Shown here one piece after another: positions 6,286 to 41,549 of a stretch of DNA of 64,000 nt (position 1 is the first letter of the stretch; each line of letters opens with the position of its first letter). The DNA lies in assembly GCA_036172245.1 (NCBI GenBank), contig JAYWIR010000024.1, positions 2,604,001 through 2,668,000 on the forward strand, read 5' to 3'. The notes beneath the pieces were generated by a model. The model ran no database searches. It was not told where the DNA came from and saw only the letters and a program-made list of their open reading frames with translations. The position numbers were made by a program, and so were the translations under genes. The DNA is from Raillietiella orientalis. Lineage: Eukaryota.

Positions 6286-7889
6286 TTATCACCCGGGTGC
6301 GCCGGGGCGTTTATTGAAAAACTATCCGGGAACAGAGTTCCCGGACAAAGGATACAGAGAAGACGAAGGGGGTGGGATCCCCGACACGCAGGTCGGTATA
6401 CCGAAAGTCCGGAACGGGAGGGAGGGGACCACAAATACACTACTATAAAAAAATAAAAAGAAAAATATGGAGGGCAGGGGACAGGGGTCTTTGGTGAGTC
6501 CGTTCCTTCCTTTCCAAACCGGCGATGGATGCCGGCGATCTCTCTCCTTACGTCCTGTGGCAGATGGGCCCACTCGGCAGCCGACGACATGCTTGTGCTG
6601 GCTAATCCGGTGGGCTGACGAAGGATGGCCAGCTTCTCCAACTCTCGGTGGGCCTTGTCGATGGCGCGGGTGCAACACACGGTTGCAACGACAGCACCTA
6701 AAGACAGGCCGCCTGGCGTGAAGAAGCGGCGCATCAAGTCCCTCGCGGTGTCCCCCTGGTGCAGGAGAGCTGAGGCCAGCCTCCGCCACAGTCCTAGGAG
6801 GGCACCGCAGTCCAAGAGCAGGTGCGGGGGCGTTTCCACTTCCCCGCACCGCTTACAGTTTGGGGAGACAACTCCACCGGAGACACGGTTCGTCCGCTGG
6901 TTGGAGTGAAAACCCCAATGCACCAACATGATGACGTCCTGCTTCCACGAAAGGGGGAACACAGAAGTGTTCAAACAGGAGGGAGGGACCACAAGTTCTT
7001 CGGGGGGCACACTCAAGTGTTCACTCCACCGAAAGAGTCCCTTCGAGATGTGGCGAGGCGTGGCGGCGTCTGCCAGCTCGCAAGTCCTCCAGCCGCCAAT
7101 GGGTCGTGTTGTTCCTGCGATGGTGCAGGCGACCTCCCATCTCGCCGGTTCGCAGCTGTCATCTCTTGCCCTGAGGGCTGACAGCACGTCGGCGAGCGGC
7201 GTGACGGCCAGGCGAGTCCACTTCTCCTGGCTGCTGCAGACCTCATCCACCGTGCAGTACGGGGAGAGGTGAACGCAACGGAGTTCCAGGAGGGGAGACA
7301 TCCTGGTGCTTTGCCCAGGCATGCAACGATTCCTGCCGCCAGGCGTCAAAGTTCGTTGGGCGGCAGGAGATCCATTCCTGGGCTGCCAGGAGCCGGTAGA
7401 GCGGTTTCAAGGGGAAACCGAAGCTTCTCGTGGCGCGCTCCGTGTGCGGCCGCAGCGACAGAAGTCCGTCGCTGCCGGTGCAGCGCCGCAGAAGCAGGCG
7501 CGCGGGAGCGCACCACGGAGTGGACCAAAGGTTGGCGCACAGGGCCAACATCCGAAGCTGCACCTGCAGCTCGATTCTCTCCAGTGTCAGGATGCCTAAG
7601 CCAGCATCCCGACGCGGAGCCGCCAAGTCTTTCAGGAGGATCCTGGACCTCGCAGGACCCCACAGAGCGTTCCTCAACAGTCTGTGCGCCTGGAGCTTGG
7701 CCGAGTAGGGGGGCGGGCAAACAAAAAGCAGGGGGCGCAAGAGGGGGGCCACGAAGGTGTTCCATATCGCGGCCCGCTCCGACAGGAGGAACCTGCCATG
7801 CTGGAACGGGCTCAGCGCACTCGTAGCCTTCCGAAGGCAGTCCGACCACACTTCCACTGGGCTGATGTTCCCCAGCGGAACGCCCAGAT
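6286..7889 (-). mobile_element. 5'-truncated L1/Tx1-like non-LTR retrotransposon, copy A (end of RT, zf-RVT-type CCHC region, 3' UTR)
   Basis: Translation starts at YLGVPLG and continues ...ERAAIWNTFVAP...ALWG...LAAPRRDAGLGI... and, after a frameshift, CKRCGEVETPPHLLLDC...W. Flanked by an exact 11-bp TSD aagaagactgt (6275-6285, 7890-7900); 3' end TGATAA, no poly(A). Confidence 0.9.
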
Positions 7890-8058
7890 AAGAAGACTGT
7901 GGTGGCAGTCGGGCGTCAGTGTCTCCCATTCAGCTTATCCTGGGAACAGGCTTGAAGCTGAAGTCGGACTCTGTGCTCCAGAACGAAGGGAAGGAAACTT
8001 TGCCATGGACGTCGCGTGTCCGTTTGAGCACCCGGCAGCGACACCAGAAGAGACAAGA

Positions 8059-17224: not shown

Positions 17225-19205
17225 GTAGACAAATCTGCAGTCTGCAAGCTTCTATCATCTAATTCAACGATGATTGATAATCGGAAACACTGAGAATGAA
17301 AGTGTGAAAACCGGAAAAGTTCGTTCATCTTTTTTGAGAGACGCAGAATCTCTGGTATCATGTGGTTTCAAATGCTTTCATACTTTGAGCTTGGCTAGGA
17401 ATGTGCTCCTCGGCACCACGCATGTGCGCTTAGGGGTTTCCGTATTCCCTCAACTGTATCAGACGGAACTTCGGGAAAAGGAGGAATAAAGTAGCAGAAA
17501 GCTGCCACAAGGTAAATGCAGCAAAATAGAGGAAAGCTGGAAGTCGGTGGAGATGAGCCAATCAAAAGGTTTGCTGAATGCCAAGAGCTCGTTCCATTCC
17601 CTGCGACCGACGCTCCATGAAAGCGTTAGATAACTCGAAAAAAAAAGCTGCTGAAGGAAACATACTAAGCGGAGGCTGCAGTGGATGGAATCTAACAAAT
17701 CGGTGTGATCAAACGCTACTGCCATTTATAAGAGACTGGATCTCGAACGTTTGGAGGAAGGTCGTGTGTCAGTATTGCTGCTGTCATGGAGTTTTCAAAG
17801 ATTCAGCGCTGCGCTTCCATTGGTCATTGTCATCTTTGCATTCCATCTGCATCGAAGTCTGCTGCTTATGAAATGCACACTCCTATTTAAGGATCCAGCA
17901 TCGAATATTAAAAAAAAAAAGATGAACAAAATACTTTTTTTAGTAGTAAAATAGCTTTATGGAATCAATACCGTTTCAATTTTATGTCTGCTATTAAGAC
18001 ATCGTTTTTGATAAACCATCCCTAGGGGACAATCGGTTTCTCGATAACGGCAGAAAGGTTATCTCATATCGACGGAAAGCTTCCTACCTACAGAACGGTT
18101 TCCCATCTTCGTCGAATGAGGTAGGGGAAACAAAATAAATAAATCAGCCGCCTGAAAGCGGGAGCATTCAGCTTCAGAGCACCCTTCACAGATGGCACTC
18201 GAGCAGGGTGAAGCTGCGTGGAAGTGAATTCATAGGATCAGCTGCCCAATAGAAAGAGGAATCTTCAGATGACATGAAATGAGAAAATCAGAATAAAAGT
18301 GATCATTCGTTCATGATGTGTGACAAATGAACGGAACATGGGAGGCCTCGTTCTGACAACCTTTGGGATGTGTCTTTTGAGACGCAGAAAAAGAAGTTTA
18401 GGAGAATAAGGGTGGGTTCCTGGTCCAATGACGTGTCATCTTATTTTCCACATTTTTGCAAGGGCAAGTTTCCTGGCTCTTGGAATCGAGAATGCTGATT
18501 ACCTGAGAGACGGTGGAAGATCTATCGCCACCATCTCTCAGGTAATCACTATTAATACAATGGTGTTATCTGAAAGATGCTTACTTGGGATCAAGAAACA
18601 CAGATTAAATAAAAAATGGAAACTACATTGACTCTTGATATCCGAGCCGATCGGACTTTGATCTCTTATGATTGTGAAATCCACGACAGGGGGTGAAACC
18701 ATATATTCTCTCCACCAAAGTTTCTTGCACCCTTAACTGGCACTCTATGAGGAATATCTGTCCATCAACTCAACGTAATATCGTCTACAAGCAATGTTTC
18801 GCGAGAGCATCTCTGTTTTTCTTAAGAAGGCATCCTCGATCTCTAGAGAACCACAATCGACAGGCGACTGTGGTCGTCTGCTTCCATCTTATTTTATTTT
18901 TTGATGAAAGTAGGCTGTTATGAGTAACAAGGGAATCTCGACTTGATGTGGGAAATTGAAGAAACACTCCGCAGCGCTGAATTCATCTCCTGTGTACAAT
19001 TTGAACAACGAAAATAAAATAAAAGAAAGAAAGCTGAACTTTTGTGGGGTGCACCTACTTCTAGAATGAAGGAATTTGGTTCGTAAGCTCTTTTTTCCGG
19101 GCTCCTACGAAGTTATTCCTCAGAGATATTTGAAGTCCCTTCACACGCCGGGGGAAGATCTTAAGAGTCCTACAATCTATCCACGAGTGGAAATACTTGA
19201 TCCAA

Positions 19206-20228
19206 CCCTGGAAGGATAACGTGACGTCATACACGACAACCAGGAACTAAAACGTGCAGACCGTCCGCCATGGTCAGTGCCGAGAGCATGCCGTTCCAGC
19301 TACCTCTGACTAAGCCTTCCGTGTGCCTGCAGTCGCAATGGCGTACAAATTGGTTGGTTTTTTTTTTTTCCTCTTCTTTTTTCCGTGTTGTGCCCGACTG
19401 TGTCGTGTACGACACCGCGCCACCGCTTACGTTGCATGCAAAGATGTTTGCACCCGTGGCCTCTCCCATAATAAAATTTTCGCGCAGAATGAAGTGGAAG
19501 GGTTGATTGGACTCCATGAGAGAGGAGAAACGAATTCAAAAGAGTTTTGAGCTGAGCCCTCAGGATGAAAAAAGAAATACTGAGGCACTTAATCGAATCT
19601 GAGATGTTCGAGCAACTTCTCCATATGAAATTTCCTTGTCTGATGAAGACCGGGATTGGGATGACGGAGGTTCGGAAGCAGAGGGCGTACAAGACGACGA
19701 ATCTGCAGCTGATGGAAGTGGTGCGGATGGCCTTTGCGCGTTTTGTCACGGAATGGTGGACGGCGCGTGGTGGTGTCCGCTGCCCTTGGGAATCCAAAGT
19801 ACAAAGCTGAATTTCCGGAAAAGTGCTCCTCCAAAATAGAAGGCAGCAGCTCGTAGCGCCTCACGTGGAACGCCGGTTGCCTGCGAGAAGAAGAAGTTGC
19901 CTCGTTCTTTGCGAGATTTGGTTGTATCTGTACGGAACAAGGAAGATCCGAGGTCCCAAGATGTTCCACAGGGAGCTTCGACCGCCCGCAAGCGCTGCCA
20001 AGTGTGCCCACGTCCCGCCGACCGGGAAGGAGGGGAAAAGTTTGCAAAAAAACCCTTACGTTGTGAATGTGCAAATGACTTATGAAATAATCTGTAAAGA
20101 GAATCGAAATTCGTTGACAGGATAAAATGTTTATGAGGAATTGGAAAGCTTTTATCATTTTAATTTGGTGTCCTATACGACACCACGCGGCCATCTGTGC
20201 ACAAAATGGCCGCGTTACCCTTCTAGGG
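19206..20228 (+). mobile_element. Internally deleted, non-autonomous piggyBac transposon (1023 bp)
   Basis: TIRs ccctggaaggataacgtgac (19206-19225) / gccgcgttacccttctaggg (20209-20228), 16 of 20 complementary. Right flank TTAA, left flank CCAA. Subterminal gtgtc..tacgacac repeats (19226, 19400, 20167). Acidic N-terminal relic (SDEDRDWDDGGSE) and C-terminal relics QLVAPHVERRL, LPRSLRDLV and RKRCQVCPRPADR (Cys-rich domain). Catalytic core absent. Confidence 0.85.
19552..19636 (+). pseudogene. sucA: Bacterial 2-oxoglutarate dehydrogenase E1 fragment, Wolbachia-like nuclear insert
   Basis: Reads LSPQD/KKEILRHLIESEMFEQLLHMKFP with one frameshift; this is the SucA segment just before the KRFS.EG motif, and near-identical to Wolbachia SucA as I recall it. 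Confidence 0.75.
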
Positions 20229-20570
20229 TTAATTATGCAAGGAGCGGACTCGGAAAATTTGTGGAGATTCGAAAGGGCGTACCCCATAGCAACAGCATTC
20301 CGATAGTGAGCCTTTGGACAAACGTGCTGGAACACAAACGTTTGAATTACTAAGGTGGCGGATTTTTTCCTTTTTCACCTAAGCGACAAAATGGAAGAAA
20401 AGAAATTCGTCCTCTGGAAAATGCTCGAAACGAAAGATAATGGTCCATCGCTCTCGTCAAGTAATCGACACAACCCTGCGATACACACGGATTCATTCGC
20501 GAAGTTCCCGGGAGTCCTTCTGCCCTGTCTTATCCCGGAAACTATAGACTATCTTATCATCCCCGCCTCC

Positions 20571-20611
20571 AAGCATAACTTCAAGTCCCGGTAGGACTTG
20601 AAGTTATGCTT
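20571..20611. repeat. Perfect hairpin, 18-bp arms with 5-nt loop
   Basis: aagcataacttcaagtcc-cggta-ggacttgaagttatgctt. Confidence 0.95.
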
Positions 20612-20779
20612 AAAGGAGCCAATTTTTGGTTAAATGAGAAGCGATTAATTACATTAAATGAGATGAGTTCCTTCTCTTGGAGGTCCCACAAGTTCCTATT
20701 GGTTGGGGTCACGGAATGCGAACTCCCATGGCTTCAGGAGTCGAAAACATCGAAATCTCTCCGGGTCCATTAGAGCAAG

Positions 20780-35861: not shown

Positions 35862-37946
35862 GGTTCTCCGAGTACCTCAAGAGCCATCGCGCGCCAGGGG
35901 CGAACAGCTCTTTCGCACTGTTCCACGCCACCCGAGGGTGAGTGTAATTCTTCAGGATAGAGGGTACCCCGGGTAACCGCCCTATGAATCCAGGAAGGAC
36001 TCCAGGGAAGGGAGTTCGTTCCTCTCACTCCTGGGGAGGGATCTTCGAAGAGAGTCTCCTTCCTTAGTTCCCCCGGAGGGACCTCTGGAGGGGTCTGCTC
36101 CATTTTTCTTCTCCCAAGGAAACCTGGAAAGGATCCTCTAGTAGAGATTTCTTCTCTGGAGGTGCTCAGCGTCGGGACGCTGGTCTCGGCCTCCTGACTC
36201 TGGATGGAAAATCAGCTGCGGTTGCGAACCTTGGCCATTGCAGAGACGTTGTGGAGTACCCCATGATGCGTTCCAGCACGTCTCTTTGCCAGCCGTGAGG
36301 CCGGAAGGAAAGGACTCGCATCTTTTTTCTCGTGCTTTCGCTCCAAGATGCGAAGATGCGATCTCCTCCTGGGTCGCATGGTTACCCTGGAGAAGGAGAA
36401 CGACTGGATGGTCTTCTGCCCCAACAACTCTATCTCATGGCTAGAAGAAACAGTTGGCGAGTAGGCGGAGATCCACGAGACGAGAACCGAGAAATGGAAC
36501 TGCCTGAGATTCGGCAACCACGCCCACTGTTTGCTCCGAGAGGTCCAGGAGTCTCCTGGCAGGAGCACGTGAGCGGAGATGACCCCCCTCGCTGCAACAC
36601 TGCTCTTTCTGAGGAGGGCAGTAGGCAGCAGCCAAGTTGGAAGCTTGCTGCAAGATTGTAGTCAAAAAGTTGATGAGTGTTTGGACCACGGGACAGCTGG
36701 AGGACACAGCGACCCGTAGGGTCCCTCCACGAGGAATACAGCGCTGGGTCGAGCTGCTCGGCATTTCATCAGAAGACCTGGAGTGTCCCCCAGTGATGAA
36801 GGACACGAGCACCTTCCCCTGAAGTGGCAGGAGTCGTCGCTGCTGCTGTTGCGCTGGGGCTTCCTCTGCAACGCACACCGATACCATTGGACTCTGGGGA
36901 GGGTAAATCTGGACTGTGGCTGGTCTGGGTAACGGGAATCCCTCCTGCATTGTGAACAGTGGACTGTGCTGCCCTCCGGCCCCTATGGGAACGTTTTGCA
37001 ACGACCCTCCGGATTCCGGTTGGCAGTCCCCCCAGGGACGTTTCATGTCTCCTCTGAGTGTGGGACGCTCTGCAGCTAAACGCAGTCCCAGCAGCACTTT
37101 GCTACATCAGCAGGATTGTGGTGGCATGGAGCGAAGCCGACAGAGGAAGAAACGGGAGGGGCACCGTCCAGTTCGCCGTTCGCTTCCTGCGGATGACGGC
37201 AAGATGGCTCCAGCTGGAAATTAGCCGGACGGACCTTGCTGGCATCCTGGAACGGATGCAGACTCCGTCCAGCTGGCAGTGATCCCCTTACCGCCCCTCC
37301 CAAATGTTTTTGTTTATTTTTATTTTTTTTTCATTTTCGTTTTCTCCCCTTCTTCTCCGCTGCCGAGGCGACCCCTGCCGGTCTACGCACCGGTGACCCG
37401 GCAGGTCCATTGTTGAGTTGGCCGTAGTAGGGCCTCGTGCCACGAAAGTTGTGAGTTTATTTTCATCAATAAGCGCCCTTGCACGACCGGGTGATAACTC
37501 CGGAGGGAACCCGCAAGGGAACCGCTCCCTCTTTCCTCCTCTGAAGAGAACCACGAAGGGATGCCTTCGAAATTTCTCAGAAGGGCGCTTCCCCGAAGGG
37601 AACAGGCACGCTTCTCTGCACTCTGGAGAGGTACCACAACTACTCCATGATACGAGACGGAGGGCGCTCCCGAAGGGGGGTCCACTCCTTTGCACGACCA
37701 GAGGGAAACTACCCACTCCTTGATTCTGTTTCCTGGAAGGTCGATTCCCAATCCCGGCCACTCATCGGGGGCATCCGGTTTGCACCGCTACCAGTGGAGC
37801 ACCCGAATGAATGGAAGCCAACCAGAGTCATCTTGCGGGGGAAACTCGAACCCACGGTTCACACAACTGGGTTCGGCGTCGATTCTTGTCGAGTGTCCGC
37901 GGTGCCACGCGCGGACACCGCGACCACGTGGCCTCCAACGCGGGCA
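35862..37946 (-). mobile_element. tRNA-headed SINE copy 2, split by retrotransposon copy B (pieces 37498-37946 and 35862-36162)
   Basis: The two pieces rejoin collinearly with copy 1 across the 9-bp TSD; an A-rich tail follows. Confidence 0.75.
36163..37497 (+). mobile_element. 5'-truncated L1/Tx1-like retrotransposon, copy B, inserted antisense into a SINE
   Basis: Starts at RRDAGLGLLTL (homologous to copy A), degraded CCHC region, ends gaccgggTGATAA; 9-bp TSD ctctggagg (36154-36162) / ctccggagg (37498-37506). Confidence 0.85.
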
Positions 37947-38240
37947 AGGATGCATGTTGTTTCAAAAACCGTTGTTTCTCATTTCCTCCGTTTCCGACGC
38001 GTGGGAGGAGATGCTTACGAGCTTCCGTGAAACCAGACGTGAGCATTACACGAGCATTTTCACGTTTCTGGAGGATGTTGACAAGGGAACAAAAATTTAT
38101 GGAGCTCCGACCTCGTAAGAGCTCTCCTGTCGCCAATTTCATCGGAATTCGTTGCTTGCATCTTTGGCATCAATGGGAAATAGAAGATTGAATGATAGAG
38201 CCATTCCGTTAAGACTCGAAATCACAGAAGAAACAACACT

Positions 38241-39861
38241 GCCCCGCGTTGGCGGCTGTGTGGCAGCGGTCTCCACGCGTGGTACCACGCGTTGCAAGCT
38301 CGAAACCCCACGTGGAGATCGACGCTGAGAAATGGGCACCTCGAGTTGCCCTCGTAGGATGACGCGGGTTGGCCTATTCGGGTGCGGCACTGGTTGACAG
38401 CTGGTCACCGGGACGTTCATTTATAAAAAATAAACGTCTGTGGCAGGACGTTTGATCCTGCCACGTTACTTATGGATACGAAAAGGAACCTGCCGGGAAC
38501 TGGCACGCAGGCCACCGGGTCGGCTCCTGGGCAGCACAGGGGAAGGGGAGACAAACAAAAAGAAAACAAAAATAAAACAGCCAAAAAAGTAGGGAGAGGA
38601 GCGTGATTCGAGAAGAGATCGCTGTCTGCTGGAGGGCGTTCTCTGCATTCTTGTAAGGATGCCAGCAAGTTCCTGTTTTATGGTTCCCAGATGGGGCCAT
38701 CTTGACGCTGTCCACATGAAGAGGACAGCCAAAAAAATGGGTTCCTGTCGTTCCGGCCTCCTCTGGTGTTGCCCCATGCAGCCATGATCCAGCGTAGGCA
38801 GCAAAGTGCTGCTAGGGATGGGGCCAGCGTGAGGGAGTCGTACAGGAAGAGACGCTTCAGGAGGTTTGTGGGGTTGCCCTCGAGGATTCCAGGACGCTTT
38901 ACCGTGCCATTTGCGGTTGCGGCAAGGAGCCAAAGGGTAACACAGTTTACTAGGAGGTGCGGGAAGGATTCCCGCTCCCCGTACCTTACACAGTTTGGGC
39001 TCACACACACCCGTGTCCACAGATGCTGGTGGGCGTTGCACGAGAGGCCCCCGTGCAGCGGCATCAATGCCGACTCCTGCCACTTTAAGGGGAGGGTGCG
39101 GGTGTTCATAAGCACCGAGGGCCACTGCAGATCTTTCTCCAGAATACCCAGAGCAAAAGTCCACGAGGTCGAGCACTCGGGGTCACAGAGTCAGTGAGCT
39201 GGCTCGTCGTCGACTCGCCCAGTCCTTTTCCCCTTACGGAGATTTCCACAGTAACCTCCCATCTAGCCATAAGGATGCTGTCTATGGGCTCCCTAAGGGA
39301 GGGCAGATCGGTGTACATCGGAAGCCGGATGCCTGTTGATTGGTCGGGATCGGAAGTTGATCCCCAGGGTTCCTTCTAGGAATCAAAGAGCCGGTTCTCC
39401 TCGGGGTTTCCTTTCCGGTTTTGAAAATGGAGCCGTATCAACGAGCTGGTTGATTGATTCCTCTCCAGAGTGTCAAGAAGCGCTCTGCTCTCTCCGGGGA
39501 CTGGCCCTTCAGAGAAATCTGGAAGCATCCCTTCAAAGTTCTCTTGAGAGGAGGAAACAAGAAGTGGATCCTTTTAGGGTTCTTTCGGAGAAGAAATGAG
39601 CAGCAGATCCCACAAACCTATAGGGATCCCTTTGGAGAGAACAAGGGCGAGAATTCCCTTTAGGGTTTCCTCCCAAGAGTAAGAGGAACAGATTCCTTCC
39701 TTTGAAGCCTTCCTGGATTCATAGGATGGTACCCTCCCGAAGTACCCCCCCTAAATTGAAGAGTTGACACGCACCTTCGGGTCGCGTGGACGGTGTTTAA
39801 AGGGCTTCGTGAGTCCTTGGGCGAACGACCCTGGGTGCTTAGCGAGGCAAAAAAAAAAAAA
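38241..39861 (+). mobile_element. tRNA-headed SINE copy 3, split by retrotransposon copy C (pieces 38241-38393 and about 39322-39861)
   Basis: ...gtgcggcactgg | aagccggatg... rejoins the copy 1 sequence gatgcggcactggtggaagccggatg; ends in an A run at 39849-39861. Confidence 0.75.
38394..39309 (-). mobile_element. 5'-truncated L1/Tx1-like retrotransposon, copy C, inserted antisense into a SINE
   Basis: VSPNCVRYGERESFPHLLVNCVTLW matches copy A VSPNCKRCGEVETPPHLLLDC; ends gaccagcTGTCAA; only a degenerate TSD (ggtgcggcactgg / ggtgtacatcgg), so the 5' boundary is approximate. Confidence 0.8.
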
Positions 39862-39904
39862 CAGAAAACTAAAGAGCTTTCCAGATTTCCAGCATCCTGG
39901 ACCA

Positions 39905-40843
39905 CTCCCTTTGAGCCAGTGCTTCCCTCCCTGAGGGACCCAAGGGACAGCATAATCTCGGCAATGTGGGAAGTGATTTCCTGCATAGCAGCAAAGAGGA
40001 AACTTCTGGGGGCGTGGACAACTCGGGAGGTGACGGACTCTGCGATTTCGAGTGTCCCAACCCAAGGACTTCCACACCGGGGAGACCTGCTCGGCATTCC
40101 TCCGGAGGAGGCGAAGTGGCCTCCAGCACACTGGAATCGTAGCGCCTTCCCCCGGAAGTGGCAGGAGTTGTGTTGCTGGTGGTGCAAGGGGGAATGCAGT
40201 GCAAAGAGTGCCTTCGCCACTGGACACGTGGATGCTTAGTGCAGCAGGTGCGGGAGGAAGTAAACTCCTCGCACCTGCTGTTGGACTGTGCTGCCTTCCG
40301 ACCACTTTGGAATCTCCTCGAGACGATCCTAGGAACCCCGGGGGTGGGAGACCCCAGCGAAATTTTCAGACGCTTCTTCGTGCGTGGTACTGCACTGTCG
40401 CCGGCCACGTCCCTCGCAGCTTCCTCCTCCTATCTCCGCGGGATCGCAGCGGCCTGAAACGCCAGAATAAGAGACCGAAATGGCAGGGATGCCATCCACT
40501 GGGTGTGGATCTTCCTGAAGAGCGCCTCGAGATGACCTCACCTGGGAGCTACACGGATGGAACTTGCCAGCATCCTGAACAGGATGTAGAGGACACCTGG
40601 CAGCGTACCGTGATCCCTTCCTCGAGCCCTCCCCTCCCCGTGTATAATTTCCCCTCCCCCATTTCGTGTGTTTATTTTTTTGGTGTGTTTTTGTTTCCCC
40701 TTCCCCCACGCTGCCGAAGCGGACCTCCTCGGTCTGCGAATCGACCTTCGGCAGGTCCATTAGATGTAGAACCAACGGTTCGACCACACCAATATATTTT
40801 TATTTCTTTATGTGATAAATGGCTCGGCACGACCGTGTGATAA
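39905..40843 (+). mobile_element. 5'-truncated L1/Tx1-like retrotransposon, copy D
   Basis: EEVNSSHLLLDCAAFRPLW...IFRRFF matches the other copies; ends gaccgtgTGATAA; probable TSD catcctggacca (39893-39904) / cattctgggcca (40845-40856), 10 of 12 identical. Confidence 0.85.
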
Positions 40844-41549
40844 TCATTCTGGGCCAATAGTAGCGATCTTTCTCCGTGAGGTTGCCACTGGTCTTTTTTA
40901 AAAAACAGAACCTCTGCTCAAGTTGGAGTGGCTCCATGTTTGCTCAACCTTTATTTATTAAGTTCCAAAACCTGAAGGGGATTTTTGAATTTCAACATGG
41001 CAAAGTATGGAATTGCAGATCTTTTCGTTGAGTCGGGCCGCTACAGGATTTGACTTGAATGGCTCACTAGCGACCATACTTTCCCGTTTTCCTTCGACTT
41101 CTTTGGAAGTCTTGGGTTAAACAGAGAGCATCCTTTCATGAGGACTAGGAGAGAGCAGCTACCCGATTCGAATGTTACAGGTTCTGTCCTCTCTTATCTT
41201 TTCATTTCAAAACAAAAGTGACTTCCTGTCTCGGTGGCAGAATTTTTTCAAGCGGTCAGTAGTGTTCTAAGTCTTGTCTTTCGTATTCTCCTTCGGTTCC
41301 TCTCGAAGATCAGTTTGAAAAAAACCATCATGAATTTAGCATTCGCAGGAAAATTCCAAAGATGGTGCCTATGTGTTCAGCTTTGGTATATACCCCATCT
41401 CTACACCTAATGCGTTGAAATGGCTCGCAACGTCAGTATGTTCGCTTTCAAAGTTTTCTCTCCGGTGCACAAATTGTTCTCGCAAGTCATGGACAGAACA
41501 CCGTCAATACATAAACGAACGAATTTTGTACACGCGAAGACCACGCTCT

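Follow-up and report, generated by a model that had tools for sequence, protein, structure and literature searches.

A Wolbachia sucA fragment inside a decayed piggyBac copy of Raillietiella orientalis, and the probable overwriting of old element copies by distant paralogues

Introduction

P-element replacement in Drosophila is a process in which transposase-induced gap repair swaps the whole interior of an element for that of an ectopic element and the tips stay; P excision leaves TIR stubs. The excision of piggyBac is seamless, as stated in the available part of PMC7351741. Conversion between transposon copies has been described for Alu, Ty/Tf2 and the ISX Helitron, with old copies replaced in place, mosaics and copies that look younger than their insertion, and raised conversion rates are given for similar copies within 10 kb (PMC6598467, accessible sections). 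Synthesis-dependent repair also copies chromosomal DNA, often from the same chromosome, the resulting duplicons being mostly <620 bp, within 5 kb and with arbitrary ends (PMC2671141, excerpted text). Wolbachia DNA in host chromosomes (nuwts) derives from many events and is decayed and sometimes multi-copy (PMC3849323 for Brugia malayi; bioRxiv 10.1101/2025.03.17.643741; portions of each). In Brugia it ranges from a 'few hundred bp to whole genome', and the origin of multi-copy nuwts is left unresolved in the same portion (PMC3849323). Short NUMTs, which enter double-strand breaks by end-joining, belong to a size class of about 45-200 bp, with blunt insertion and 0-2 filler bases (PMC11372161, partial text). 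The passages of PMC6544945 on cargo capture by transposons contain nothing on Wolbachia cargo. A literature search that left most subscription papers outside its scope returned no report of near-identical pairing of piggyBac copies or of nuwt spread inside a transposon, and, in the same scope, no paper on P-element replacement or on conversion and gap repair of non-autonomous TIR elements.

Here, we have analyzed a window of 64,000 nucleotides (C24:2604001-2668000, on a 3.1-Mb contig of a 210-Mb assembly with 491 contigs), in which a scrap of Wolbachia DNA lies within an old piggyBac copy. It resembles the known nuwts in being decayed Wolbachia DNA in a host chromosome, one of many such events and present more than once. 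Unlike the Brugia nuwts, it measures only 86 bp, and paralogous transposon copies show the empty state, so that the junctions can be read to the base and the duplication route can be followed, which makes the insert valuable as a marker. Size class, blunt junctions and filler are shared with short NUMTs, but the DNA comes from a bacterial endosymbiont, and the mechanism is deduced from the junctions. Replacement in place, mosaics and a misleadingly young appearance recall conversion between transposon copies; unlike those cases, the element is a DNA transposon, 22 of the 50 copies examined are affected, and the tracts extend almost from one end to the other between distant sites and would have bridged a divergence of ~25%. 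The pattern also recalls P-element replacement in that the interior is swapped and the tips are kept, but the excision of piggyBac is seamless, and no transposase was found for the family among the best candidates scored. Repair-mediated duplication, which likewise copies DNA often within one chromosome, was rejected, as size, distance and ends all fail its definition: the unit is 1.0 kb, the copies are 581 kb apart and the ends are those of the element.

Results and discussion

The host element and its family

The element and its parts are listed below (positions in the window).

19206-20228, plus strand: non-autonomous, internally deleted piggyBac copy of a ~940-bp family, with both TIRs
19206-19223, plus strand: left TIR, 2 mismatches to the family 18-mer
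19456-19730 (end approximate), plus strand: putative N-terminal relic of the transposase, acidic, frameshifted and split by the insert, its stop lying at 19548-19550; placed by family alignment and consensus frame (ORF 19314-19550)
19551-19636 (86 bp), plus strand: Wolbachia sucA fragment, codons ~139-166 of P0004, 82/85 bases identical to the best alleles
19637-19638, plus strand: two extra junction bases, either filler or a continuation of the Wolbachia match by two bases, one of them changed
19885-20082, plus strand: C-terminal transposase relic (cysteine-rich domain), 53% match to residues 59-136 of the L150 relic
20211-20232, minus strand: right TIR (20211-20228, 1 mismatch) and intact TTAA (20229-20232)

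The family TIR has 18 bases and gave 65 genome matches at <=2 mismatches, compared with 16 for a reversed control. The CCC...GGG TIRs and the TTAA target site that define piggyBac were found family-wide. Only the two ends of the transposase are kept in the family. The C-terminal relic of the L150 copy matched the Trichoplusia ni piggyBac transposase (PDB 6x67, residues 465-586, E 4e-7), and a Pfam search with it gave no hit. The N-terminal relic, for which no database match was found below E 0.1, would be the transposase N-terminus by its position alone. The family is a non-autonomous piggyBac derivative.

A search of the genome with the element gave 78 matches representing 39 copies. Together with 11 copies from 13 further regions (two of these, L238 and L243, matched weakly or not at all and were excluded) they form the sample of 50 used below. 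The median divergence from the family consensus was 14%, with 10.0% for the TIR 18-mers and 15.7% for the interior; that of the window copy was 17.9% (about 17-18%; 17.4% was used in the age test). No autonomous parent with the same ends was found when the family was compared with 15 transposase-bearing loci (best candidates scored), which gave no match. Most of the best matches in a PF13843 genome search had stops, and no full-length parent was present among 65 matches of the C-terminal relic (best candidates scored). As the preliminary description of this DNA had stated, the window copy retains both TIRs; its left target site, however, is CCAA (19202-19205) and only the right one is an intact TTAA. 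Two tight hairpins flank the element, at 18491-18553 (26-nt arms, 88%; 0.65 kb away) and 20566-20616 (23-nt arms, 91%; 0.34 kb away).

Identity, junctions and age of the insert

Both DNA and protein comparisons assigned the insert to Wolbachia sucA. The best identity (82/85) was shared by four Wolbachia genomes, followed by 80/85 to wStri, which we take to belong to supergroup B. Matches to the insert DNA at E<=0.001 occurred in 56 of 60 genomes of the genus (best E 6.6e-33). Thirteen of 14 candidate proteins matched the insert, and all seven named ones were Wolbachia 2-oxoglutarate dehydrogenase E1 (SucA). The 23-aa insert peptide had a single family hit in NCBIfam, PRK09404 (SucA, E 0.018), and, being too short for Pfam and PDB searches, no match there. 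When 80 sucA loci were scored, the top 13 were Wolbachia-like (L033-L045; 12 titled Wolbachia and one a Rickettsiales MAG), the next score being 39 versus 138. Two changes were host-only relative to 33 allele rows, a substitution at 19616 and an extra base at 19567. The intron-containing DHTKD1-like gene of the host encodes a different peptide at the homologous site (34% over that stretch) and has no DNA match to the insert, whose only matches in its own genome are its two copies. The preliminary description had proposed from recall that the insert encodes Wolbachia SucA, with Wolbachia sucA and not host OGDH/DHTKD1 as the expected best match, and had suggested an endosymbiont-to-host DNA transfer and a past or present Wolbachia infection. 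The transfer and a past infection are supported by the DNA and protein matches and by the nuwt load described below. Both flanks of the insert continue the host transposon on the 3.1-Mb contig (assembly level). By these matches, the insert is a nuclear Wolbachia transfer (nuwt). It is ordinary for this genome and has no function.

Relative to insert-free copies, the net gain is 88 bp (19551-19638), of which the Wolbachia match covers 86 bp. Among 14 aligned insert-free copies, 11 had a clean empty site and three had deletions of their own there; no host bases were lost or duplicated at the insertion site. ORF 19314-19550 follows the family transposase frame, and its stop lies directly before the insert. 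The foreign insert had been placed earlier at 19555-19635 (81 bp), and its removal was said to restore an in-frame peptide. The insert itself was recognized correctly, but its limits were not; removing 81 bp does yield the peptide, but leaves four Wolbachia bases behind and reads the upstream part in a frame that is not that of the family transposase. The proposed in-frame restoration was rejected for these wrong boundaries and this frame.

The insert is <=3.5% from living Wolbachia, compared with 17-18% between the host copy and its family consensus (3/85 versus 17.4%, P about 1e-4; P 0.006 if 12% is used). Being so much closer to its source than the element is to its consensus, the Wolbachia DNA therefore arrived when the element was already dead. 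Only four of 49 sampled Wolbachia matches in the genome (see below) reach 90%, two of which are this insert, placing it among the youngest sampled. Size and junctions suggest capture by end-joining at a break, as for short NUMTs.

A second insert-bearing copy on the same contig

A genome search for copies with and without the insert, as the preliminary description had recommended, found a second insert-bearing copy (L002, C24:2042167-2043219, minus strand) 581 kb from the window copy on the same contig. The two are 98.9% identical, differing by seven substitutions and three gaps, and share the following tracts.

19197-19205, plus strand: left flank common to both copies, 8/9 bases matching, including CCAA (19202-19205) and a TTAA-like 4-mer (19197-19200)
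19408-20188 (781 bp), plus strand: tract identical in both copies by pairwise alignment, insert included

Six of the seven substitutions fall within the first 202 bp, and a 781-bp identical run has P=0.00025 if the seven are evenly spread. Homology stops nine bases past the left TIR and exactly at the right TTAA, the other flanks being unrelated; 10 kb on each side of L002 gave only repeat matches of 66-82% to the window. A segmental duplication was rejected as the source of the pair, as no homology was present beyond the nine flank bases within +/-1.5 kb. L002 has lost its left terminal CCC; placing its left end three bases beyond the consensus spacing would give it TTAA on both sides and bring the pairs (see below) with a TTAA-bracketed member to 3/11, otherwise 2/11. 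All private changes found from element position 4 inward belong to the window copy and none to L002, so that almost nothing is left in L002 that would prove an independent old insertion. It should be noted that an old repeat family (66-73%) occurs at 36700-40900 of the window and beside L002 (L147, C24:2032200-2042100), too diverged for a joint duplication.

Near-identical pairs across the family

Pairing was common in the family. Near-identical pairs (twins) comprise 22 of the 50 copies (44%), in 11 pairs and no triplets, and the tree of the 42 alignable copies (of 50) was a star with 11 cherries. Non-twin copies had a median identity of 74.8% (850 pairs). In ten pairs, twin cores differed at 20 of 7461 positions (0.27%) and twin tips, taken as the outer 15 aligned bases, at 27 of 285 (9.5%; Fisher P 3e-27). 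This count leaves out L026/L134, an 89-91% mosaic (8/30 tips, 39/737 core). Non-twin tips differed at 18.9%. Left twin tips differed at 21/150 and right ones at 6/135, which may reflect the asymmetry of piggyBac ends. With unlocatable ends set aside, changes affected 29/168 target-site bases of twins and 41/188 of singles, and TTAA flanked both ends of 2/20 twins and 3/20 singles. In most pairs both members carried private end changes. In one pair (L015/L020) the first ~80 bp are unlike and the rest is 99% identical; in another (L136/L137) nine bases past the right TIR are common to both members and neither has TTAA. Twin tracts were 0.7-1.7 kb long, with members 59 kb-1.6 Mb apart or on other contigs, and 8 of the 11 twin pairs were same-contig pairs, compared with 2.4% of all pairs. 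No recent short conversion tracts were evident among non-twins, whose longest identical run in 850 pairs was 53 bp.

One twin pair, L008 (C1:1112893) and L010 (C1:1822205), carries the same ~800-bp insertion, which by eye resembles the LINE-like repeat at 6300-7900 of the window. We considered whether this extra DNA could be transposase and rejected this for a LINE-type insertion, again by eye. As the insertion is shared, nested cargo not derived from Wolbachia appears to have been duplicated along with the element as well. The window repeat is young and high-copy, 93-95% identical to the best 40 of 3482 candidates, with ORFs that have no Pfam hit. It served as a non-TIR comparison: 30 copies of the 3482 candidates had a median identity of 93.8% and a maximum of 98.7%, a family too young and large to decide whether the pairing is specific to piggyBac.

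Similar pairs were observed in a second piggyBac group. All six pairs picked there share 1.3-1.8 kb at 89.6-99.5% with unrelated flanks; they were chosen for equal scores among PF13843 matches and imply no frequency. In the five pairs whose ends were examined, the shared block stops at or inside separately decayed element ends. The pairs (L244-L255) are at C22:1.16/1.29 Mb; C17:3.10/3.86 Mb; C12:0.17/0.34 Mb; C10:3.27/3.52 Mb; C4:6.06/4.60 Mb; and C29:1.87 Mb/C97:0.16 Mb.

Overwriting of old copies and other explanations

The combination of near-identical cores with independently decayed tips and target sites argues for whole-element overwriting of old copies. High-identity tracts bounded at or inside old, independently decayed copies, together with mosaics, the pattern by which gene conversion is recognized, were observed here. 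For the family as a whole, the simplest reading is that homology-directed repair replaced the sequence of old copies with that of a paralogue. Support is weaker for the window/L002 pair than for the family; for this pair we give ectopic gene conversion over the whole element, as opposed to cut-and-paste, a probability of about 0.68. A point against it is that homologous repair between copies about 25% apart is hard by textbook expectation. In addition, the same-contig enrichment fits local hopping equally well, and one pair (L230/L231) also fits transposition with carry-over of the donor's 4-base flap. Such a route for the window pair would require that the insert-bearing dead copy was re-mobilised in trans and made a local hop to a new TTAA, the donor being restored from the sister or homolog, possibly with the left cut shifted by ~5 bases or the donor flank carried along. 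We regard this as unlikely, although several observations speak for it: homology ends exactly at the right TTAA between otherwise unrelated flanks, TTAA brackets L002 if the left end is set further out, both copies are on one contig, and the TIR 18-mers are better kept than the interior (10.0% versus 15.7%). Furthermore, piggyBac can be excised from flanks other than TTAA, but its integration remains at TTAA when the donor lacks this site (PMC7351741, available part). Because of this integration preference, a fresh copy should have a fresh TTAA and nearly every transposed pair should have one fresh member. However, the TTAA on both sides and intact tips expected of a transposed copy were not found family-wide (2/20 twins versus 3/20 singles), and in L002 they depend on the placement of the left end, with the terminal CCC missing. 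The crowding of six substitutions into the first 202 bp beside the 781-bp identical run (P 0.00025) also speaks against a hop, most other pairs are unreadable in this way even with flap carry-over, and neither a family match at the 15 transposase-bearing loci, nor a full-length parent among the 65 relic matches, was found, with stops in most of the best PF13843 matches. Thus, the earlier suggestion that bacterial DNA was spread by transposition holds in that the insert did spread once, as the second copy demonstrates, but transposition is not the best reading of how.

Two further explanations concern the assembly and the origin of the scrap. Near-identical repeats are often given one consensus, and the identical core could have been sharpened in this way; that the second copy itself, or the perfect identity of the core, is a product of assembly or polishing seems highly improbable, given seven substitutions, three gaps and unique flanks on a 3.1-Mb contig. 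Moreover, copies 25% apart would not be merged by an assembler, and the two host-only changes in the insert indicate that it is not carry-over from live Wolbachia sequence. A templated insertion, with a longer nuclear Wolbachia segment at another host locus as the source of the scrap, would be in line with the many nuwts of this genome, including two other sucA pieces. We consider it improbable, as neither piece overlaps the part of sucA found in the insert, and nothing in the assembly matches the insert except its own two copies.

Under the overwriting reading, the history of the pair could be as follows. The ~940-bp internally deleted piggyBac spread once, long ago, as the star-like tree and the decay show, and its copies decayed to a median of 14%. 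Much later, a break in one dead copy would have been sealed by end-joining with an 86-88-bp Wolbachia scrap. Homology-directed repair would then have made this copy and another old one, 581 kb distant, alike, one serving as template and nearly the whole of the other being overwritten, with its outermost bases spared or scrambled. This overwriting may have overshot the left end by ~5 bases, to the TTAA-like 4-mer, and a later tract may have homogenised the central 781 bp. Because the tracts run end to end, our preferred guess is that the gap was opened by piggyBac transposase cutting near the TIRs in trans. In a broader proposal, a trans-acting or domesticated transposase would cut dead piggyBac copies at or just inside the TIRs, and the ensuing gap repair would routinely exchange these copies from end to end for distant paralogues that are ~25% diverged; we consider this doubtful.

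The insert alone adds little, as nuwts are well known; more unusual is the overwriting from end to end. The scrap illustrates how a nuwt may become multi-copy, the question left open for Brugia in the available part of PMC3849323. If the overwriting is true, near-identical transposon copies in this genome are no evidence of recent activity, and germline repair works from distant templates that have diverged strongly, a property that may be linked with the heavy uptake of Wolbachia scraps. If replacement triggered by transposase is true, there would be a natural, piggyBac-specific route that spreads cargo, here Wolbachia DNA, long after transposition stopped, and dead families would look recently active.

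Wolbachia scraps in the host genome

We also measured the load of Wolbachia-derived sequences. With three 20-kb pieces of one Wolbachia genome as queries, 15, 18 and 16 host matches were obtained (49 per 60 kb), most of them 50-450 bp long, with 70-90% identity and a higher AT content than the flanking DNA; L183, at least, is a host gene, and a few long matches of 65-73% are ambiguous. Scaling from 26 (>=80%) or 36 (>=75%) of the 49 gives a rough genome-wide estimate of about 550-760 nuwts, in which repeated IS matches are counted. Comparison of the window and the 39 family loci with 33 sucA loci and seven 20-kb pieces, a small part of the Wolbachia genome, yielded no further scraps. The two other sucA pieces are at C12:3254313 (226 bp, 84%) and C11:2938900 (72 bp, 82%). 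A larger decayed Wolbachia block was observed at C41:712-715 kb (L182/L191), where AT-rich Wolbachia intergenic DNA adjoins an IS-like segment of 533 bp that matches one Wolbachia genome at 89%. Finally, gappy matches of 65-73% to Wolbachia genes, 1.1-1.4 kb long, at C40:170862-172281 (L200), C34:2034222-2035392 (L212) and C13:4194097-4195154 (L204) are probably old nuwts.
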